Assembly: GCA_048938025.1 (NCBI GenBank) | Contig: JBHLMP010000037.1 | Location: 16,548 to 37,727 of the forward strand | Source: Promethearchaeota archaeon | Lineage (GTDB): Archaea > Asgardarchaeota > Lokiarchaeia > Sigyniarchaeales > SOKP01 | Length of the DNA: 21,180 nt | Direction: 5' to 3' | Part shown: positions 3 through 16,849 of the stretch, piece by piece | How the letters are laid out: each line of letters opens with the position of its first letter | Numbering within the stretch: the first letter of the stretch is position 1 | Translations under genes and position numbers: made by a program | The notes under the pieces: model-generated | What the model saw: only the letters and a program-made list of their open reading frames with translations | What the model was told of the DNA's origin: nothing | Databases searched by the model: none

Positions 3-596
3 AACACAGAAAATTCGAATAAAGAAGAACTTAAAAAATTTATAGAAGAAACTAACGAAAAACTCTCAAGTTTCTCATCCATACTTCAAAAATTTGGATT
101 AGATTTAATTACAAAAATGGGTCAAACAAATTTGAAATTAAATATGTTGACAGATAAAATCGATGAATTAAGTAAAGCAACAATCGATGTTAAGGCATTA
201 ATACCTCAACTAAATAATGTAATTGAAAATCAAAAAATTCTCGAAGCTGAACTTGATTTAATTCGATCCTTAATACAGAAGTCAAGTGTCTCATTTCAAC
301 CAAAAGAAATAGAAAGTGAGGTTGTTGAAAGAGATATAGCTGCTACAGATAAAAAAGAATCAATAATTAGTCAACTTATAAACTTAAAAGACGAAATCAA
401 CAAAATAGATGACCCAAAAATAGTTATTAAAACATTAAAAAAAATAAAAGAAGATATTTTCGTATTTACAGGAGGTCATAGAATCCTTTATGATATCTCA
501 CAAATTATTAATAATTTAAATGAGAATAATACAATTCCAGAAGATTTAAAGGAAATTATTAAGGAAAAAACTATTTTTTGGAAAAATAAATTATAA
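3..596 (+). CDS. Hypothetical coiled-coil protein, probably 5'-truncated by the window edge
   Basis: The frame of ORF 117..596 is open back to position 3 (NTENSNKEELKKFIEETNEKLSSFSSILQKFGLDLITK-M), so the true start probably lies upstream. Heptad-like L/I pattern, K/E-rich; no family recognised. Confidence 0.75.
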   Translation, partial: NTENSNKEELKKFIEETNEKLSSFSSILQKFGLDLITKMGQTNLKLNMLTDKIDELSKATIDVKALIPQLNNVIENQKILEAELDLIRSLIQKSSVSFQPKEIESEVVERDIAATDKKESIISQLINLKDEINKIDDPKIVIKTLKKIKEDIFVFTGGHRILYDISQIINNLNENNTIPEDLKEIIKEKTIFWKNKL

Positions 597-758
597 CTTA
601 AAAATTAGCTAAGTAATTTTTTACTTTTTTATCAAAAGATTAAGATATCTTTATTAACAATTACAGTAAGTAATATATATTAAACCTAGTTTGCAATATT
701 CTAAAAATATTGAATTTAATGAATAATTATTAAAAATAATTCGAAAATGGTTATGATT

Positions 759-1289
759 ATGGGAAAAGGAAAAGTTGTTGCCATAATTGGCGCTGCAGTT
801 GGAGTATTAAGCGTTATCCTGAGTTTAGTTTTGCCCGCATTGTTCTCTTGGTACCATTTAGAGGTTACTGGTGGCGGTCTTTCAGATTATCTTTACCTTA
901 CTGCATTTGGGACTATAGATGCGGATATTACACCGCTCTCAGCCCCAGATGAGATAGTTATATTAGTATTGATCGGAGGTATCTTGGTACTAGCAGGAGC
1001 AGCTTTGTGTATTGTTAGTGCACTTACAGAACAAAAAATTTTAGGAATTATTGGTGGAATTGCAATGCTTTTAGGTCCAACCTTCTTAATTTTTGACCTT
1101 TTAGGCCAAATGAGTGAGTTTGCTGAATTTATGGATAATGTAACTACTACTCTCTATGATGAAAATATCTTTTTTGCTACGTTTACACCTGGTCCTGGAA
1201 TTAACGGGGTTGCGGGCCTATGGATTGGATTCTTCATGGCTTATGGTGGTGGAATTTTAGGGTTGATAGGTGGAGCAACAGTCGAATAA
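759..1289 (+). CDS. Four-TM membrane protein, array paralog 1 (claudin/PMP22-like layout, putative)
   Basis: Four hydrophobic segments. Shares SWY, YLTAFG, GG.LVLAGA.LC, SEFA, IFF and GLIGGAT blocks with the other paralogs. Start at ATG 759 (MGKGK) is preferred over 747 by alignment with the paralogs. Confidence 0.85.
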   Translation: MGKGKVVAIIGAAVGVLSVILSLVLPALFSWYHLEVTGGGLSDYLYLTAFGTIDADITPLSAPDEIVILVLIGGILVLAGAALCIVSALTEQKILGIIGGIAMLLGPTFLIFDLLGQMSEFAEFMDNVTTTLYDENIFFATFTPGPGINGVAGLWIGFFMAYGGGILGLIGGATVE

Positions 1290-1381
1290 TAAATTAATTT
1301 TTTTTTTATTTCTTTACTGTTTTTAGGAAAAATAGGTTATAAATTAAATCTTCAATCATATGTGTATAATTTTTTAATATT

Positions 1382-1515
1382 CTAGAGAAACCTTTATTAA
1401 TAATTGTATTAAAATTATATTTAATAAAAATTGATGTCCAAAATTATTAAAATCTTTAATTAATTTGCGAAAAAATAAATAAAATTAAAAAATAAATAAG
1501 AAAGAGGTAATAAAT
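1382..1515 (+). repeat. 134-bp upstream/promoter region, copy A (copy B at 2232-2365)
   Basis: Manual alignment gives 9 mismatches in 134 bp and no indels; a weaker copy lies at ~3362-3447. Confidence 0.95.
1385..1400 (+). promoter_or_regulatory. Putative archaeal BRE/TATA promoter (GAGAAACC-TTTATTAA), repeated before each array gene
   Basis: CTTTATTAA(T/C)AATT occurs before all four paralogs (TTTATTAA at 650, 1393, 2243, 3367), preceded by a purine-rich BRE-like stretch. Confidence 0.65.
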
Positions 1516-2040
1516 ATGGGAAAAGCTGGAATGGTTCTTGCAATAATTGGCGCTGTTATTGGGCTATTAAGCGTTCTCCTAGGTTTAGCTATACCCGCAC
1601 TATTCTCTTGGTACCACTACGATTTAAGTACTCCTGGTTATTCCGGGGGACTTTATCTTACAGCATTTGGTAGTATAATTTCTGATCCATCAGGAGCAGA
1701 TTTTGAAGTTGCTACACTAGTATTGCTCGGAGGTATCATGGTATTAGCAGGAGCTGGTTTATGTATCGTCGCTGCTGCTACAAAAATGAAGCCTTTAGGG
1801 ATCATTGGTGGAATTTTGATGATTGTAGGCCCAATTATGTTAATTATTGACCTTGCGAGTGTAGGCAGTGAGTTTGCTGAATATATGGATAATATAGCTA
1901 CTTACACTGATAAATCTATTTTTTTCGATACATTTAGTTATGCGGGTTATAGTGTCGTTTGGGGCTTATGGGTTGGTTTTTTCATGGCAATAGCTGGTGG
2001 AGTTGTAGGACTGATAGGTGGAGCAACACTATCAGAATAA
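1516..2040 (+). CDS. Four-TM membrane protein, array paralog 2
   Basis: Same conserved blocks; GAGGT Shine-Dalgarno at ~1504-1508; T12 tract after the stop. Confidence 0.9.
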   Translation: MGKAGMVLAIIGAVIGLLSVLLGLAIPALFSWYHYDLSTPGYSGGLYLTAFGSIISDPSGADFEVATLVLLGGIMVLAGAGLCIVAAATKMKPLGIIGGILMIVGPIMLIIDLASVGSEFAEYMDNIATYTDKSIFFDTFSYAGYSVVWGLWVGFFMAIAGGVVGLIGGATLSE

Positions 2041-2053
2041 TTTAAATATTAAA

Positions 2054-2065
2054 TTTTTTTTTTTT
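2054..2065 (+). terminator. Oligo-T archaeal terminator (equivalents at 1298-1307, 2915-2927, 3158-3165, 3993-4002)
   Basis: A T8-T13 run lies within ~20 nt of the stop codon of every array member. Confidence 0.65.
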
Positions 2066-2135
2066 CTAAATTAACTTAAGTGAATTTAAATTAATATAAA
2101 TATTAGAGTTAGAAAATTTAAAAAACTAAAAATAA

Positions 2136-2223
2136 TTAATCATCTAATTTTGACTGATAAGTTAAGTCTGCAATTTTTTGAAAAATAATTAACGACTTCT
2201 CTTGTCAACGCAGAGGTTTCAAA
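2136..2223 (-). pseudogene. Duplicated 3' end of the Rab-like GTPase gene, remnant 1
   Basis: Minus strand reads FETSALTREVVN/(2-nt deletion)/IFQKIADLTYQSKLDD*, versus FETSALTGEGVKTIFQKIADLTYQSKLAD* in the live gene (4058-4147). Confidence 0.92.
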
Positions 2224-2231
2224 TAACATTA

Positions 2232-2365
2232 CTAGAGAAACCTTTATTAATAATTATAGTAAATGTATATTTAATAAAAATTGATGTCCAAAATTATAAA
2301 AATCTTTAATTAATTTACGAGAAAGTTAATAAAATTAAAAAATAAATAAGAAAGAGGTAATAAAT
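2232..2365 (+). repeat. 134-bp upstream/promoter region, copy B
   Basis: Direct repeat of 1382-1515; begins ~8 nt after GTPase remnant 1. Confidence 0.95.
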
Positions 2366-2896
2366 ATGGGAAAAGCTGGAAGGGTTCTTGCAATAATTGG
2401 CGCTGCTATTGGAATTGCAATGGTTCTCCTTAGTTTAATTGGAGGCGGATTTTTGTCTTGGTATTATTTTGATGTTGATTATGGCCCTTATACAGGTGGA
2501 GTTTATCTTACAGCCTTTGGGAGTTTCATTGAGGATACGATTTCATTACCAAGTGCCTATACCGAGGTAGCTATGTTAGTATTGCTTGGAGGTATCTTGG
2601 TATTGGCAGGAGCTGGTTTATGTATTGTCTGTGCTGCTACAGAAAAGAAGCCTTTAGGGATAATTGGTGGAATTTTGATGATTTTAGGCCCAATTTTCTT
2701 AATTATTGACCTTGCCGGTCAAGTCAGTGAGTTTGCTCAATTTATGGATCAAATAGCTAGTGCCTATGATGAATCTATTTTTTTCGGTTCATTTAGTTAT
2801 GGACCTGGTAGTCTCGTTTGGGGCATAGGGATATTTCCTATTGCTATGATAATAGGTGCTGGAGTTGTAGGGCTGATAGGTGGAGCAACACTATAA
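2366..2896 (+). CDS. Four-TM membrane protein, array paralog 3
   Basis: Same conserved blocks; upstream region nearly identical to that of paralog 2 (offset 850). Ends two codons earlier than paralog 2 (TCA vs TAA), with the paralog-2-equivalent stop still present at 2900-2902. Confidence 0.9.
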   Translation: MGKAGRVLAIIGAAIGIAMVLLSLIGGGFLSWYYFDVDYGPYTGGVYLTAFGSFIEDTISLPSAYTEVAMLVLLGGILVLAGAGLCIVCAATEKKPLGIIGGILMILGPIFLIIDLAGQVSEFAQFMDQIASAYDESIFFGSFSYGPGSLVWGIGIFPIAMIIGAGVVGLIGGATL

Positions 2897-3038
2897 AAAT
2901 AATTTAAATATTAATTTTTTTTTTTTTCCTAATTAATTTAATTTCTTAAAGTAGTCATAAAATTTGAAAAGACTTAACTAAGTTTAAATTAAGAAAATTT
3001 AAAATTAGAGTTAAGAACATTAGAATTTGAAGAAATTA

Positions 3039-3157
3039 AGTATTTTCTTTGGTTCAAATAGCACCTATGCATGGGGTTTATGGTCGGGTATTTCCTTGCC
3101 TATAGTGGTGGAATTTTAGGATTGATAGGTGTAGCACTAGTATCACCTTCAAATTAA
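3039..3157 (+). pseudogene. 3' remnant of a fifth array paralog with a 1-nt deletion
   Basis: Reads SIFFGSNSTYAWGLW, then (after restoring one G in tgg-gtc) VGYFLAYSGGILGLIGVALVSPSN*. This matches the paralog C-termini (WGLWVGFFMAIAGGVVGLIGG; AYGGGILGLIGG). Followed by T8; no 5' part or promoter. Confidence 0.85.
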
Positions 3158-3257
3158 TTTTTTTTAAATTTTTCATTAAATTCACTTAGCTAAATTTAAA
3201 TTAGTATAACCTTAAAAGTAGAGTTAAAAAATTTAAAAACAGAAAAATCAAAGTTAT

Positions 3258-3347
3258 TTAATCAATTAATTTTGACTGATACGTTAGATCTGCTATTTTT
3301 TGAAAAACAGTTTTAAAATCCTTTCCTGTTAACGCATAGGTTTAAAA
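3258..3347 (-). pseudogene. Duplicated 3' end of the Rab-like GTPase gene, remnant 2
   Basis: Minus strand reads F*TYALTGKDFKTVFQKIADLTYQSKLID*. It is colinear without indels with 4058-4147 and carries a GAA>TAA nonsense change. Confidence 0.92.
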
Positions 3348-3447
3348 TAAAATTAGATAATAAACCTTTATTAATAATTAGATTAAATTTATATTTAAAA
3401 GAAATAGATATCCAAGATTAAAAAAAATTAAGAAAGAGGTTGTACAT

Positions 3448-3978
3448 ATGGGAAATATGGGAAAATATCTTGCCATAATTTCCGCTTTTGTCGTAATCTT
3501 AACCGTTCTCCTTAGTTTAGCCATACCTGCACTGTTTTCTTGGTACGATTTCACAATAAGTGGCGGTGGTTACTCATCTGGGCTATATCTTACCCCATTT
3601 GGAACTTTCATCGTGAATGATTATGGAAGTCCAGATGAGATTGTTGGCTTAGTATTAATTGGAGGTATCATGGTATTAACTGGAGCAGGGTTATGTATTG
3701 CTGGCGTTGTTAAAGAAATTAAAGTTCTCGGAATAATTGGTGGCATTTTAATAATTCTTGGTCCAACTATGCTATTAATTGACCTTAGGTTTCAGATCAG
3801 TGAATTTGCTCAAGGGATGCATCATTTAGTTGAGACTGAGAGTTATAATTTAACTCATGCTCTTTGGGGTAGTTTTAGCCCTTCTCCGGGGGTAACCGTG
3901 GATTTTGGCATAACTATTGGTTATTTTATTACTTATATTGCTGGTATTTTAGTATTTAGTGGGGGATTGACAATATAA
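3448..3978 (+). CDS. Four-TM membrane protein, array paralog 4 (most divergent)
   Basis: PALFSWY, GLYLTPFG, GGIMVLTGAGLC and SEFA blocks; GAGGT SD at ~3436-3440; T10 tract at 3993-4002. Confidence 0.9.
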   Translation: MGNMGKYLAIISAFVVILTVLLSLAIPALFSWYDFTISGGGYSSGLYLTPFGTFIVNDYGSPDEIVGLVLIGGIMVLTGAGLCIAGVVKEIKVLGIIGGILIILGPTMLLIDLRFQISEFAQGMHHLVETESYNLTHALWGSFSPSPGVTVDFGITIGYFITYIAGILVFSGGLTI

Positions 3979-4057
3979 TTTAAATACTAATCTTTTTTTT
4001 TTATAATCTAAACTAATTTAGAGCTGAAAATTTCAAAATTAGAAAAAACTAAGATAG

Positions 4058-4630
4058 TTAGTCAGCCAATTTCGACTGATATGTTAAATCTGCAATTTTT
4101 TGAAAAATAGTTTTAACGCCCTCTCCAGTTAAAGCAGAGGTTTCAAAAAAGGGAGCACTTAATTTTTCGCTTAAATGATCAGCCATAGGATGAATAATTT
4201 TTCTCTCATCTTTTAGATCTATTTTATTACCAACTAATATACGGGGAATTCCGCTAAGACCGTACCGAACTGCCGAATTATACCAATTGTTTACATTAGA
4301 AAATGAACTTGAACGTGTAATATCATATACTAAGATCATACCATCTGCACCATTGAAATATGGACGATGAAGCATATAAAATTGGGGTTGTCCTGCGATA
4401 TCCCAGAACATGAGAAATACATTAACATCACTTCCTTTTTCATCAACTACATTAAGCTTTGCTTTCAAAATGTTAACGCCAACTGTGGGTATATACTCTC
4501 CCTTGATTTGTTTACCTAAAAAATTGTCAAGGAGAGATGTTTTACCTACTGCTGGGTCTCCGATAACAATTATTTTATAGACTAATTCATCTCGAGATGT
4601 AAAAATGAGTCCTTCTTTTTCTTCAGGCAT
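4058..4630 (-). CDS. Rab-like small GTPase (Ras superfamily)
   Basis: G1 GDPAVGKTS, G2 PTVG, G3 WDIAGQ, G4 NKID, G5 ETSAL; no C-terminal Cys prenylation motif. Confidence 0.95.
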   Translation of the reverse strand: MPEEKEGLIFTSRDELVYKIIVIGDPAVGKTSLLDNFLGKQIKGEYIPTVGVNILKAKLNVVDEKGSDVNVFLMFWDIAGQPQFYMLHRPYFNGADGMILVYDITRSSSFSNVNNWYNSAVRYGLSGIPRILVGNKIDLKDERKIIHPMADHLSEKLSAPFFETSALTGEGVKTIFQKIADLTYQSKLAD

Positions 4631-4714: not shown

Positions 4715-5257
4715 TTAGTAAGATAAAGGAAATTGTTTTTCAATTTTAAATTTCGCAATTTTACTTTTTTCTCGAGCGATAAAAAAAATATCATTAACGA
4801 GAAATTCTAATGGTATCCAAGAGCTCTGTAATTTATTTATCACTTTAGACAGCTTTTCTTTTCCTTTTATTTGCCCTACACTTAAATGAGGAGTGAATCC
4901 TTTCTTAAATTTATTCACATCATTACAATCAGGAACTAATTTTAATATTTCAGCTTGAAGTGTAATACTTGATTCATTTGGTTCAGGTTCTAACCAGATT
5001 GTATAATTCTGATGTCCATGATTAAAGAATCTAAAGCTTTTTAATGAAAGCTTAAATGAGTTGATTTGTGAACAGATTTCTGAGAATTTATCTTCAATTT
5101 TATAATAAGAGCTTTTTGGTCTAAATGGATATATTAGTGTTATGTGGGGCATCCATTTATCGACATTTCTATCATATTTTATTCTAATTTCTTGGATGGG
5201 TTTCCATTTTTCTTTTGGAGGGATAATGACTACAGCAGAAGTACTAACTTTACTCAT
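4715..5257 (-). CDS. 2H phosphoesterase / 2'-5' RNA ligase family protein
   Basis: Two HxT/S motifs: PHITL and PHLSV. Confidence 0.88.
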   Translation of the reverse strand: MSKVSTSAVVIIPPKEKWKPIQEIRIKYDRNVDKWMPHITLIYPFRPKSSYYKIEDKFSEICSQINSFKLSLKSFRFFNHGHQNYTIWLEPEPNESSITLQAEILKLVPDCNDVNKFKKGFTPHLSVGQIKGKEKLSKVINKLQSSWIPLEFLVNDIFFIAREKSKIAKFKIEKQFPLSY

Positions 5258-12005: not shown

Positions 12006-12536
12006 TTATATGCCTGATTTTTCAATCATTATACGACTTATCGTTTCGAAAACAACTTCTACATTTTCTCCAGTTTTAGATGAACACTCAATAAAATCTA
12101 AAAAATTATTCTCCTTGGCAAAAATTTTTCCCTCTTCTTTAGAGACTGTTCTATTTTCTTCAAGATCGAATTTAGATCCAACTAAAATCGTAGAAACCTC
12201 TTGATTATTTTCTTTATTAGCCTTATTAAATACTCTCAACCACTCAATTAATGATTCAAATGTAGAATATTGGGTAATATCATACATAAATATAGTTCCT
12301 TGCGCCCCAAGAACTGCACTAGGTAAAAGAAATCTGAATTTTTCTTCTCCCGCAAAATCCCATATTTGTAAAGATATTTTATTTCTATTAAGTTCAAGTT
12401 TTTTCAAATAGAAGTCCATACCAATTGTTAGTTGATATCTCTCTTCGAAAATTCCTGTTAAATATCGATTAGTTAGAGTAGTTTTACCAACTCCTCCATC
12501 CCCAAAAATTACAACTTTATATTTTGTATAAGTCAT
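12006..12536 (-). CDS. Rab-like small GTPase (Ras superfamily)
   Basis: G1 GDGGVGKTT, G2 TIGMDF, G3 WDFAGE, G4 GSKFD, G5 ECSSK; no prenylation motif. Confidence 0.95.
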   Translation of the reverse strand: MTYTKYKVVIFGDGGVGKTTLTNRYLTGIFEERYQLTIGMDFYLKKLELNRNKISLQIWDFAGEEKFRFLLPSAVLGAQGTIFMYDITQYSTFESLIEWLRVFNKANKENNQEVSTILVGSKFDLEENRTVSKEEGKIFAKENNFLDFIECSSKTGENVEVVFETISRIMIEKSGI

Positions 12537-12725: not shown

Positions 12726-14414
12726 ATGGAATTACCAGATTATATAAAAAATCGGTACTGGAAGGATTACTTGCCCCCTGGAATAACGTTACAGATAAAC
12801 ATACCTGAAGATATTTCTTTGGTTGATATTTTTGAAAAAGGTGCTAAAGAATATAGCGATAATATAGCAATGGATTATTATGGAAGAGAATTTACGTTTA
12901 AAGATATGGATAATTTAACAAGACGATTTGCCAGTGCCTTATTAAAGTTAGGTCTAAAGAAAGGAGATATTGTCGCTCTATGGTTGCCAAATTGCCCACA
13001 CTTTAGCATTTGTTATTTTGCTACATTAAGTCTCGGTGCAACCTTAACAGCTATTAGTCCCTTGTTCGTTGCGAGAGAAATGGCTTATCAAATAAAGGAT
13101 TCAGGTGCAAAATTTCTAATAATGATTGATAGATTTTTTCCTCAATATAAACGAATTAAAGAGGAGTTACCATTAGAAAAAGTAATTCTTGTTAATGTTG
13201 AAGGTAAAACTCCAGATATTCCTGAAGATAACAAAATTTTACATTTTAATACCTTAATGGATCAAAATCCTGAACCAATCACAGATTTTAAAATTGATAT
13301 TAATCCTAAAGAACATATAGCTGTTATTCAATATACAGGAGGAACAACAGGTTTACCTAAAGGAGCAATGCTTACGCATTATAATATTATTGCAAATATT
13401 TATCAAATGAAACAAATTTCCGATTATATGAGAGAGGTATATCTTAAAGAAAATTTCATAACTCTTTCTGTGCTTCCATGGTATCATATTTATGGGCAAA
13501 CATGTGAACTTGCCCAAGGTCCTTTACTTGGTTCAAAAGGAATAATAATGGCTACATTTGATATCCCCCAAATCCTTGAAGCAATTCAGAAGCACAAGCC
13601 AAATTTAATGCTTGGAGTTCCAACAATGTTTATAAATCTCTTAAATTATCCTCAGAGTAAAGATGTAGATTTTTCTAGTTTGAAATATGCTAACGTTGGA
13701 GCAGGAGCCTTGCCCACTGAATTATTCAAAGTGTGGGAAGAAAAAACAGGTTTTGCATTGGGAGAAGGCTACGGATTATCGGAAACAAGTCCAACAGTCA
13801 CAAATTCTCCACCCTGGGCAAGAAAAAAATTTGGGAGCTGTGGTCATCCAGTTGCAAACACTTTGGTAGGTATAATTAATGAAGATTTAGAATTTTTAGA
13901 TATAGAAGAAGCGGGAGAATTAGTAGTTAGTGGTCCACAGGTAATGCTAGGATATCATGATCGTCCAGAAGAGAATAAGAAAGTCTTTTTTGAAGCAGGG
14001 GGTTATAGATGGCTGCGAACAGGTGATTATGCAAAAATGGATGAAGAAGGTTATATTTTCCTTTTAGATAGAGTTAAAGATATGATAAAATATAAGGGGC
14101 ATAGTGTATATCCGAGAGAAATTGAGGAGATTCTATATGAACATCCAGCTATTTTAGAATGTGGTGTAGTCGGTGTTCCAGATCCCGTGAAAGGGGAGGA
14201 GATAATGGCTCATATTATTCTTAAAACTGAATATCGTGGCAAAATTTCAGAACAGGAAATTATTGATTGGTCAAAGGAAAATATGGCAGCATACAAATAT
14301 CCAAGAATTATAAAATTTGTACCCAGTTTACCTAAGAGTGCTGTCGGAAAAGTATTAAGACGAGTTATTAGAGAGAAAGAGGTTAAAAAAGCAGAAAAAA
14401 GGAGAAAAAAGTAG
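12726..14414 (+). CDS. fadD: Long-chain-fatty-acid--CoA ligase (ANL adenylate-forming family)
   Basis: QYTGGTTGLPKG, EGYGLSETSP, GELVVSGPQVMLGY, WLRTGD, DRVKDMI, LPKSAVGKVLRR. Confidence 0.9.
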   Translation: MELPDYIKNRYWKDYLPPGITLQINIPEDISLVDIFEKGAKEYSDNIAMDYYGREFTFKDMDNLTRRFASALLKLGLKKGDIVALWLPNCPHFSICYFATLSLGATLTAISPLFVAREMAYQIKDSGAKFLIMIDRFFPQYKRIKEELPLEKVILVNVEGKTPDIPEDNKILHFNTLMDQNPEPITDFKIDINPKEHIAVIQYTGGTTGLPKGAMLTHYNIIANIYQMKQISDYMREVYLKENFITLSVLPWYHIYGQTCELAQGPLLGSKGIIMATFDIPQILEAIQKHKPNLMLGVPTMFINLLNYPQSKDVDFSSLKYANVGAGALPTELFKVWEEKTGFALGEGYGLSETSPTVTNSPPWARKKFGSCGHPVANTLVGIINEDLEFLDIEEAGELVVSGPQVMLGYHDRPEENKKVFFEAGGYRWLRTGDYAKMDEEGYIFLLDRVKDMIKYKGHSVYPREIEEILYEHPAILECGVVGVPDPVKGEEIMAHIILKTEYRGKISEQEIIDWSKENMAAYKYPRIIKFVPSLPKSAVGKVLRRVIREKEVKKAEKRRKK

Positions 14415-14470
14415 AGTCTTATTATTGTTCTTATGCACTATACATTTAAGCAAACATATCAATAATATAA

Positions 14471-16849
14471 TTGAAGGCTAGAACATTGAATGAGAGAATA
14501 ACAAAATTACGCAATGAAAGTCGTAAAGCAATCCCCTATATCTCGTTAGAAAGAGCTTTATTAATAACAAAATTTTATAAAACTGGTGCTGCTCATAAAT
14601 TTTCGCCACCGGTTGCTAGGGCTAAAGCATTTAAATACATTATAGAAAATAAGAAAATATGCATTAATGAAGGAGAATTAATTGTTGGTGAACGCGGACC
14701 TGAACCTAAAGCAACACCCACTTATCCTGAAGTTTGCTGTCATAGTTTAGAAGATTTGGAAATATTACATAATCGAGAAAAAATTTCTTTTAAAGTATCT
14801 GAAGATGTAATACAAAATCAAGAAGAGATAATAATTCCATTTTGGAAGGGAAGATCAATTCGCGATAAAATTTTTTCTCAAGTTGATAAAGAATGGAAAG
14901 ATGCATACGAATCTGGAATATTTACAGAATTTATGGAACAAAGAGCTCCCGGACATACTGTGGCAGGAAAAAACATATGGAAAAAAGGATTTTTAAATTT
15001 TAAAAAAGAGATAGAAATTAGTATCAAAAACTTAGACTTTTATAATGATCCTGATGCTTTAGATAAGAGAGAACAATTGAGAGCAATGGATATTGCAGCA
15101 GATGCAATTATCATACTAGCAAAACGTTATGCTCAAGAAGCTTTAAATTCAGCAAAAAAGCAAAGTGATCCGATTAGAAAAAAGGAATTAGAAAAGATCG
15201 CTGAAATTTGTTCTCATGTACCCGCACATGCACCTAGAACATTTTGGGAAGCCCTCCAACATTATTGGTTTATTCATCTTGGGGTTATAATTGAATTTAA
15301 CACATGGGATTCTTTCAATCCTGGACGTTTAGACCAGAATTTATATCCTTTCTTTGAAAAAGATAAAGCTGAAGGAATTTTAACTCAAGAAAAAGCTATT
15401 GAACTTCTTCAAGCTTTTTGGGTAAAATTTAATAATCACCCAGCACCCCCTAAAGTTGGTGTTACAGCTGAAGAAAGCAACACTTATACCGATTTCTGTA
15501 ATATAAATTTAGGAGGATTAAAAGAAGATGGAACTAATGGTGTTAATGAACTCTCCTATATGCTTCTGGATGTAATTGAAGAAATGAGAATACTTCAACC
15601 AAGTAGTAATGTTCAAATTAGTAAAAAGACTCCAGATGAGTTTTTAAAACGAGCACTCAAAATTGTTAAAACTGGCTTTGGTCAACCCTCAATTTTTAAT
15701 ACTGATGCCGTTATACAAGAATTAACTAAACAAGGAAAATCATTAATTGATGCTCGTAATGGGGGGGCTAGTGGTTGCGTAGAAGTAGGGGCTTTTGGAA
15801 AAGAGGCATATATTTTAACAGGATATTTTAATCTTGTAAAAATTCTAGAAATTACTCTAAATAATGGAAAAGATCCAATAACAGGCAAAGAAATTGGATT
15901 AAAAACGGGAGATCCTATTAAATTTAAAACTTTTGATGATTTAATGGAAGCATATACAAAACAGATTAATTATTTTGTTGATATTAAAATTAAAGGAAAT
16001 CAAATTATTGAACGACTTTGGGCTCAACTTCCAGCTATTTTCATGTCAATCATTATTGAAGATTGTATTCAGAATGGAGAAGATTATAATAATGGAGGAG
16101 CAAAATACAATACTTCTTACATCCAAATCGTTGGGATGGGTAGTATAACCGATTGTTTAGCTTCTATTAAATATAATGTTTATAATAAAAAACTTATTAC
16201 AATGGAAGAATTGTTAAAAGCACTCGACACAGATTTTGATGAATTTGAGGTTATAAGACAAAGATTAATATATAAGACTCCAAAATACGGTAATGATGAA
16301 GATTTTGCTGATAATATCACTAAACAAGTATTTGAAATTGTTTATAATGCAATTGATGGGCGTCCAAATACTCGAGGTGGAGCACATAGGATAAATTTAT
16401 TACCTACAACGGTACATATTTACTTTGGAAAAATTACAGGGGCGACCCCTGACGGGAGAAAAGCATATTATCCCTTATCTGAAGGAATTTCACCAGTACA
16501 AGGGATGGATCTTAAAGGCCCTACAGCAGTAATAAAATCTGCTGGGAAAATTGATCATCTCCGAACCGGAGGAACTTTATTAAACCAGAAATTTTCCCCT
16601 ACATTTTTCTCAAGTGATTCTGGTATGAATAATATTATTCATCTAATACGTACTTATTTTGAAATGGATGGACATCATATACAATTTAATGTCGTTTCAG
16701 CTGATACTCTACGAACAGCCCAAAAAAACCCAGAACAATATCATAATTTAATTGTAAGAGTAGCAGGTTATAGCGACTACTTTAATAATTTAGGTGTAGT
16801 CTTACAAGATGAGATAATTAGAAGAACAGAACATTTATCATATTATTAA
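14471..16849 (+). CDS. hypD: Glycyl radical enzyme, trans-4-hydroxy-L-proline dehydratase type
   Basis: RVAGY glycyl loop and SGCVE Cys loop. HypD-type motifs EQRAPGHT, WDSFNPGRLDQ, PKVGVTAEESNTYTDF, ILTGYFN and LPTTVH. TTG start. Confidence 0.85.
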   Translation: MKARTLNERITKLRNESRKAIPYISLERALLITKFYKTGAAHKFSPPVARAKAFKYIIENKKICINEGELIVGERGPEPKATPTYPEVCCHSLEDLEILHNREKISFKVSEDVIQNQEEIIIPFWKGRSIRDKIFSQVDKEWKDAYESGIFTEFMEQRAPGHTVAGKNIWKKGFLNFKKEIEISIKNLDFYNDPDALDKREQLRAMDIAADAIIILAKRYAQEALNSAKKQSDPIRKKELEKIAEICSHVPAHAPRTFWEALQHYWFIHLGVIIEFNTWDSFNPGRLDQNLYPFFEKDKAEGILTQEKAIELLQAFWVKFNNHPAPPKVGVTAEESNTYTDFCNINLGGLKEDGTNGVNELSYMLLDVIEEMRILQPSSNVQISKKTPDEFLKRALKIVKTGFGQPSIFNTDAVIQELTKQGKSLIDARNGGASGCVEVGAFGKEAYILTGYFNLVKILEITLNNGKDPITGKEIGLKTGDPIKFKTFDDLMEAYTKQINYFVDIKIKGNQIIERLWAQLPAIFMSIIIEDCIQNGEDYNNGGAKYNTSYIQIVGMGSITDCLASIKYNVYNKKLITMEELLKALDTDFDEFEVIRQRLIYKTPKYGNDEDFADNITKQVFEIVYNAIDGRPNTRGGAHRINLLPTTVHIYFGKITGATPDGRKAYYPLSEGISPVQGMDLKGPTAVIKSAGKIDHLRTGGTLLNQKFSPTFFSSDSGMNNIIHLIRTYFEMDGHHIQFNVVSADTLRTAQKNPEQYHNLIVRVAGYSDYFNNLGVVLQDEIIRRTEHLSYY

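Follow-up and report, generated by a model that had tools for sequence, protein, structure and literature searches.

Two relics of the 3' end of a Ras-family small GTPase gene, located between tandemly repeated membrane-protein genes in a Promethearchaeota genome, are very probably remnants left by ordinary tandem duplications and deletions within a membrane-gene array that evolves by birth and death. The array lies in a stretch of 21,180 nucleotides (nt; assembly GCA_048938025.1, contig JBHLMP010000037.1, positions 16,548 to 37,727; hereafter, the window) that is AT-rich (GC content 25-34%) and is situated on contig C42 of a genome assembly of 3.5 Mb (88 contigs; completeness 96.7%), referred to as G000 where it is compared with its relatives. 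Four full units and one fragment, all on the plus strand and arranged head to tail at a spacing of 754-1124 nt, occupy the gap between an open reading frame (ORF), termed ORF0, and the convergent GTPase gene. The four membrane proteins (mem1 to mem4) are 49-67% identical to one another, and no further copies were found in the genome. The features of the region, in window coordinates, are as follows.

3 to 596, plus strand: 3' part of ORF0, coiled-coil-like and conserved, forming the left flank of the variable gap.
747 to 1289, plus strand: mem1, a four-helix membrane protein of 180 amino acids (aa), array paralogue; its upstream region differs from those of the other units.
1316 to 1390, plus strand: ORF0-tail relic (junction type J1), comprising the last 9 codons of ORF0 and native downstream sequence.
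1382 to 1515, plus strand: upstream block of unit 2, a putative promoter and 5' leader, with 87% identity to 2232-2463 over 232 nt.
1516 to 2040, plus strand: mem2, 174 aa, array paralogue, modelled with AlphaFold2.
2136 to 2223, minus strand: GTPase-tail relic A, 29 codons and a stop, with a 2-nt deletion.
2224 to 2365, plus strand: junction J2 and upstream block of unit 3, from alignment and repeat search.
2366 to 2896, plus strand: mem3, 176 aa, array paralogue.
3041 to 3160, plus strand: remnant of a lost mem gene, covering roughly its last 40 codons and frameshifted (junction type J3), with 74-80% identity to the 3' ends of mem1 and mem2.
3258 to 3347, minus strand: relic B of the GTPase tail, which is in frame and carries a stop at the E codon.
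3348 to 3447, plus strand: junction J2 and upstream block of unit 4, from alignment and repeat search.
3448 to 3978, plus strand: mem4, 176 aa, the GTPase-proximal unit, orthologue of gene G098_c of a sister genome.
4058 to 4630, minus strand: live Ras-family small GTPase, 190 aa (PF00071).
4715 to 5257, minus strand: LigT-like gene, to the right of the GTPase.

A preliminary description of this DNA, made from the sequence alone, held that two apparently intergenic stretches are decayed copies of the GTPase 3' end together with adjoining spacer, and alignment, a repeat search, and a genome-wide search all agree with this. Searched against the whole 3.5-Mb genome with spacer included, relics A and B match the live 3' end (4058-4147) at nucleotide identities of 82% (E = 2.9e-24) and 79% (E = 4.5e-26), respectively, and a 132-nt live stretch used as the query recovered two extra copies only, the next-best genomic match having an E-value of 0.0026. 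The three copies constitute repeat family D5 (2097-2228, 3219-3350, and 4019-4150), each with about 40 nt of spacer plus the GTPase 3' end, and the T-run located 3' of the GTPase stop codon is kept in each relic. On the minus strand, the translation of the live tail ends in FFETSALTGEGVKTIFQKIADLTYQSKLAD followed by the stop; the reading frame of relic B is intact except for a stop at the E codon, and relic A is in frame only with a 2-nt gap. Further, FQKIADLTYQSKL is identical at the protein level across the live tail, relic A, and relic B, as had been claimed. All three copies terminate at GGTTTCAAA (2215-2223, 3339-3347, and 4139-4147), so that the single fixed breakpoint proposed for both relics also holds. 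About 19 nt past GGTTTCAAA lies a conserved CTTTATTAATAATT block, a putative TATA box or promoter judging from its letters, which marks the start of the upstream block of the next unit, in accordance with the earlier statement that such an element follows within about 20 nt; the TATA label is retained as a putative one.

The junction itself, termed J2, consists of GGTTTCAAA, then TAA(A/C)ATTACTAGAG, and then the promoter block. It is found not only in relics A and B but also in three relics (F1, F2, and the decayed F0) of G098, a sister genome with three units. In each of A, B, F0, F1, and F2, the F-E-T codons of the GTPase run into sequence that lies upstream of the promoter block, and on the side away from the GTPase the junction sequences of all G000 and G098 relics are homologous.

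Of the three junction types in the array (J1, J2, and J3), just one contains the GTPase tail. Upstream of mem2, positions 1316-1348 are 85% identical to 570-602 within ORF0 (repeat family D16), and the ORF0 3' flank of the sister genome G012 matches 1316-1390 at 83% identity over 76 nt (E = 2.7e-16). The unit 2 and unit 3 upstream blocks form repeat family D4, in which sequence from 1382 onward matches 2232-2463. Downstream of mem3, the spacer is cut short and is followed by the mem 3' fragment at 3041-3160, whose change of frame is seen in the alignment (repeat family D7); the unit after mem3 lacks a relic because of a deletion, which left this fragment. The earlier description of the repeat unit as promoter, membrane gene, T-tract, and GTPase tail needs a correction for the unit after mem3, which is without its relic. 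The presence of an ORF0-tail relic and a mem fragment in the array therefore indicates breakpoints beyond the GTPase tail.

Arrays of mem genes were found in the gap between ORF0 and the GTPase in G000 and five sister genomes, with 4 units in G000, 3 in G098, 2 in G091, 1 in G078, 1 in G012, and at least 1 in G102, whose contig starts there. The comparison across genomes that had been proposed earlier thus shows array content to vary (1-4 units) between the same flanks. The 12 array genes of the six genomes form one clade with a support of 100/100 relative to 4 non-array homologues. Within it, mem4 pairs with G098_c at 100/100, and both of these genes adjoin the live GTPase. The synonymous divergence (dS) of this pair, 0.20, is near that of ORF0 for the same two genomes (0.27), while mem2 and mem3 are the youngest pair in G000 (dS 0.31) and the remaining paralogue pairs have dS values of 0.42-0.75. 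Several of the duplications are therefore as old as the split of the six genomes or older, and the GTPase-proximal unit has been stable since that split. In G012, which has one unit and a segment corresponding to a 125-aa Cys-rich ORF, GGTTTCAAATAAAATT is kept directly upstream of the single promoter block, where it is either a J2 remnant or pre-existing microhomology. As a separate observation, the Cys-rich 125-aa ORF has no Pfam match and lies between two mem genes in G091 (L081:884-1261); the matching ~450 base pairs (bp) in G012 (L029) lie between ORF0 and the single mem gene, with the ORF apparently broken into shorter ones.

The anatomy of the array, the shared junction, the varying number of units, the monophyly of the paralogues, and their positional orthology are observed directly; the order of events that we infer, including the part played by crossing-over, would be as follows. 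A single illegitimate tandem duplication, relying on microhomology at most, would have had its right breakpoint in the GTPase gene, in an A/T run before the E-T-S codons, and its left breakpoint just upstream of the promoter block of a membrane gene. The founding product would have been a unit running from the promoter through the membrane gene, T-tract, and spacer to the GTPase tail, with a dead tail in the left copy and the live gene in the right one. Unequal homologous crossing-over between units would then have multiplied the single junction, and all relics would have the same breakpoint because they are copies of it. A separate duplication with its breakpoint in the ORF0 tail would have produced J1, illegitimate deletions would have produced J3 and pruned units, and the array would have been inherited vertically, with gains and losses of units differing between sister species. 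Iterative tandem amplification that copied one junction was one of two routes put forward in the preliminary description, and it is favored here by the occurrence of the same junction in all relics of G000 and G098, the single clade formed by the array genes, and the presence of other junction types.

The other route was integron-like capture with the GTPase tail as a landing pad, in which circular cassettes of promoter, gene, and tail would repeatedly integrate at the GTPase 3' end, regenerating the gene and leaving the old tail behind. A single fixed relic breakpoint, the position of the tail at the end of units, and relic codon states common to live alleles of different sister genomes would all be compatible with such capture, as would a contig from one sequencing run in which a live-like tail continues into a promoter block, which could equally be the J2 junction of a related strain. 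The machinery is not in evidence: Pfam scans of 19 window ORFs detected no recombinase or transposase, in agreement with the earlier remark that none is visible in the window, and the genome-wide search that had been suggested returned a sole tyrosine recombinase (PF00589), on contig C33, and no serine recombinase (PF00239). No attC-like repeats were found, and the 16 inverted pairs in 560-4200 are chance matches of AT-rich, low-complexity sequence, none of them recurrent at unit boundaries. Moreover, a landing pad predicts novelty beside the live gene and the opposite was found, in that the GTPase-proximal unit is stable and orthologous and the distal units differ, which therefore counts against capture. 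The existence of other breakpoints (the ORF0-tail relic and the mem fragment) and the homology of the non-GTPase junction side in all copies further disfavor this route, which is regarded as very improbable.

Divergence of the relics was evaluated by comparing ten tails, with the core defined as the 13 codons of FQKIADLTYQSKL. Relics are 71-88% identical to live tails, and live alleles are 86-99% identical to one another. Outside the core, relic B carries about 8 non-synonymous changes (stop included) and about 1 synonymous change, and relic A carries 4 non-synonymous and 3-6 synonymous changes along with its 2-nt deletion; here, the G000 relics decay as pseudogenes. Six codons of FQKIADLTYQSKL are variable, and 5 of the 6 have a relic state that live alleles of sister genomes show as well. 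For the TCG serine codon, it is the live copy of G000 that stands alone (1 of 10), and ACT in relic A is the only private state. The finding that core differences are solely synonymous is explained mainly by variation that arose in live genes, whether in the live lineage of G000, prior to copying, or via gene conversion. An alternative is that the relics are kept for a function, as bidirectional terminators, insulators, or regulatory RNA, and that purifying selection has left the 13-codon core unchanged. This idea draws on the scarcity of private changes in the G000 core (given below) and on the T-run after the GTPase stop codon in each relic. In G098, however, changes are seen in 9 core codons of the relics, and 7 of these changes are non-synonymous: 6 of 13 codons in F1, all non-synonymous, and 1 non-synonymous and 2 synonymous changes in F2. 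In addition, G078, G012, and G102 have a working-looking unit with no intact relic upstream, and the unit after mem3 has none either. A retained function is accordingly considered extremely improbable.

Several observations weigh against the duplication-and-deletion reading. First, no G000 relic has more than 1 private change in the core, as compared to about 6-10 in the surrounding 16 codons, a mild excess of conservation that may reflect chance or gene conversion with live tails as donors. Second, a tree of tail plus spacer (10 rows, 210 columns) does not resolve: in approximately unbiased (AU) tests, a single relic clade received p = 0.37, all groupings tried received p = 0.19-0.49, and no grouping was rejected. 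This is the tail tree recommended in the preliminary description, and it does not decide between the models. Because the tail tree is unresolved, the single origin of the relics rests on the shared junction and not on phylogeny. Third, individual sites conflict, with GAA>TAA common to B and F2, GCT>GAT to A and F1, and CAA>AAA to F1 and F2. Fourth, G012 and G102 are mosaic relative to one another over about 3 kilobases (kb; L029 vs. L080), patches of 95-100% and of 67-87% identity alternating across mem, the N-terminal half of the GTPase, and LigT, which indicates recombination with diverged lineages at this locus. Fifth, no long read spans the whole array.

Some of these points invite an explanation by homologous exchange between strains, in which units and tails would be imported from diverged relatives via conserved flanks or tails and the relics would be foreign live tails that were cut off. 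The G012/G102 mosaic favors it, as do relic synonymous states that match various live alleles, minor joints in contigs from co-occurring populations that suggest variants, and contigs of G098 and G091 that end at the E codon where relics end. On the other side, the identical non-GTPase side of the junction needs a single origin in any case, the tail tree cannot tell the models apart, the array genes are monophyletic, and exchange may act atop duplication and not in its place. Exchange as the source of the relics is thus considered decidedly unlikely, while inter-strain homologous exchange is probably also active at the array locus and dispensable for explaining the relics. With respect to the contig ends, contig C188 of G098 (L079) and contig C21 of G091 (L081) both end in the GTPase at the E codon of FETS, the endpoint of the relics; such ends are expected where an assembly graph forks at a repeat boundary, and hint at further near-identical tails or strain variants.

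Contigs from three runs of one study, independent of the assembler, bridge both relic junctions with 0 differences (1502-2295, 2352-3789, and 3766-4124), which, given that these runs may include the source sample, is a check on the assembler and not on the biology. No single Logan contig covers the whole array, breaks occurring at a 54-nt exact repeat that is present in the promoter blocks of both unit 2 and unit 3. Minor joints in Logan contigs (606>1386, 2062>2244, and 147>4134) rest on short sides, and related organisms may be their source. Misassembly as the source of the relics was ruled out by the bridging contigs and by the identical junction in G098.

The setting of the array was compared across the genus. 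Twenty loci were fetched, 18 of which contained both ORF0 and the GTPase (the remaining two contigs ended early), and the two genes are convergent in 18 of 18. Including the window (19 genomes), the gap between them ranges from 23 bp to 5893 bp, with the following distribution.

23-24 bp: 3 genomes
289-334 bp: 3 genomes
782-832 bp: 7 genomes
954 bp: G022
1077 bp: G017
1343 bp: G012
3384 bp: G014
3461 bp: G000 (window)
5893 bp: G011

Most gaps of about 0.8 kb and above are occupied by an SRPBCC-type gene. In G017, a distant member of the genus whose GTPase is ~72% identical, a GTPase-tail relic located ~130-320 nt past the live stop (L042) continues in frame into the initial 11 codons of the SRPBCC gene and is followed by a second putative promoter and the full SRPBCC gene. 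This arrangement is exactly what an independent tandem duplication with breakpoints before FFETS and in codon 11 of the SRPBCC gene would produce. The breakpoint in G017 falls within a few bases of that in the G000 clade, at the T-run encoding FF; this run may be fragile, or the match may be a coincidence. The gap between ORF0 and the GTPase is a general hotspot of insertion and tandem growth. A scan of metagenomes with the GTPase yielded 80 loci, 54 of which have the ORF0-GTPase pair, and in 45 of these 54 the gap is 373 bp or less. Only two of the 80 loci are close relatives (99% and 90% identity), both on ~1.1-kb contigs that are too short for arrays; under the filter used, no tail fragment was found in the 80 loci, and a mem piece was found in L086 only. 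A profile of the mem family matched 65 of 154 genomes of the order, mostly with 1-3 copies at other loci, and tandem pairs or triples at other loci were observed in 5 further genomes. Separately, the 5.9-kb gap of G011 (L033) was found to hold three tandem paralogues of a ~573-aa protein, and the 3.4-kb gap of G014 (L038) a set of unrelated genes.

Comparison with known systems places the array among those that evolve by birth and death, in which tandem arrays arise from illegitimate duplication and are grown or shrunk by unequal crossing-over. Like these, the array has head-to-tail units, one junction copied per unit, pieces of flanking genes at junctions, copy numbers that differ among relatives, and monophyletic paralogues that include old and young duplicates; no essential difference was noted. 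The process itself is well known, and what is new here is an example in a metagenome-assembled genome of an Asgard-type archaeon with relics of both convergent flanking genes. Integron arrays are similar in having short single-gene units in one orientation at one locus with content that is variable between relatives. Unlike integron arrays, the array described here lacks an adjacent integrase and attC-like sites, its units each have their own conserved upstream block (a putative promoter), unlike promoterless cassettes that are read from a common promoter, and all units are paralogues of one family. Integrative elements in gene 3' ends (e.g., those of tRNA genes) leave a duplicated tail, and the array resembles them in that a partial direct repeat of a gene 3' end stands beside inserted DNA while the gene is intact. 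It differs in that it lacks an integrase, its inserted DNA duplicates the neighboring gene, the oldest conserved unit lies beside the live gene, and the tail of the opposite flank is duplicated too. No tRNA genes were found in the window. Finally, rhs and cdiA loci have orphan toxin-tip and immunity modules downstream, and there, as here, gene 3' fragments alternate with small genes; the tails described here differ in being copies of one conserved C-terminus that are convergent to the membrane genes. A reading as rhs/cdi-like orphan modules was rejected, as no toxin family was detected with Pfam and the tails are not variable.

Regarding the flanking genes, the product encoded at 4058-4630 is, from profile scans (PF00071, E = 4.5e-42; TIGR00231, E = 1e-27), a Ras-superfamily small GTPase. 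Its translation contains GDPAVGKT, DIAGQ, NKID, and ETSA, which we take to be G1-G5-type motifs of Ras-superfamily GTPases. It was matched in 37 of 41 genomes (E <= 1e-40), with exactly one match in 35 of these, and as a tblastn query it returned 52 segments genome-wide. ORF0 has no Pfam or NCBIfam match. Elsewhere in the window, a second Ras-family GTPase was detected at 12006-12536 on the minus strand (PF00071, E = 2.2e-48), adjoined at 12726-16849 on the plus strand by an AMP-binding enzyme and a pyruvate-formate-lyase-like glycyl-radical enzyme. A search of titles and abstracts on Asgard small GTPases and tandem membrane proteins found nothing on the window locus.

The cargo of the array consists of membrane proteins to which NCBIfam assigns no family name and whose nearest protein clusters are from Promethearchaeota. 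An AlphaFold2 model of mem2, built from a 16-sequence alignment (predicted local distance difference test score 90.2; predicted template modelling (TM) score 0.84), is composed of four long helices, with two beta-hairpins located at the same side. Searched against the PDB with Foldseek, its best matches were all claudins or TARPs (best E = 9.4e-4; TM score ~0.5). An all-against-all comparison with VIA-align ranked highest claudin-19 (Z 12.3), claudin-15 (11.6), claudin-4 (11.5), MP20 (11.0), and TARP gamma-7 (10.8), the best of which falls below the Z of ~13 at which matches between helical bundles become safe. The array proteins have no match to the Pfam claudin families (PF00822 and PF13903) at E <= 0.01; there is only a weak match to DUF4064, which at 21.6 bits stays below the cut-off of 32.1, and the papers found on DUF4064 concern Firmicutes. 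The four modelled membrane helices, the predicted extracellular beta-sheet, and the top structural matches suggest a tentative likeness to the claudin/PMP22/TARP fold. As a difference, the strands of the mem2 model are divided 2+2 over its two outer loops, as compared to 4+1 in claudins. The array proteins are modelled as claudin-like four-helix tetraspans with a predicted extracellular beta-sheet. No paper linking claudins to Asgard archaea, or to archaea generally, was found in titles and abstracts.

The membrane genes also evolve quickly. Across ten mem pairs, the ratio of non-synonymous to synonymous substitution rates (dN/dS) was 0.40-0.78, as compared to 0.16-0.23 for ORF0 and 0.02-0.09 for the GTPase, and it reached 2.09 between the array genes G012_a and G102_a (L029:6245-6808 vs. 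L080:698-1255), in which 38 of 42 differing codons are non-synonymous. In the predicted outer part of this pair, dN/dS was 3.5 (26 non-synonymous changes, 1 synonymous; dS 0.06), and in the helices it was 1.0, which suggests diversifying selection or patchy recombination; no contrast between outer part and helices was seen for mem4/G098_c (dN/dS 0.41 vs. 0.49). A more far-reaching and unlikely proposal is that the array proteins would be surface-exposed claudin-fold tetraspans that share a genuine, though distant, ancestry with the claudin/PMP22 superfamily of eukaryotes. They would be maintained in several diversifying copies as a module for recognition or adhesion, with GTPase tails and promoter blocks as homology anchors for reshuffling units within and between strains.

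The analysis illustrates that a fixed breakpoint together with a duplicated gene tail can mimic an attachment site, while here it would be one old junction copied by descent. The locus offers a clean, datable example of array growth and shrinkage in Asgard-type archaea, in which the relics of both flanking genes provide the markers. More promising as a lead is the cargo of the array, an unnamed family of archaeal membrane proteins with a claudin-like predicted fold and unusually fast evolution in its predicted outer loops.

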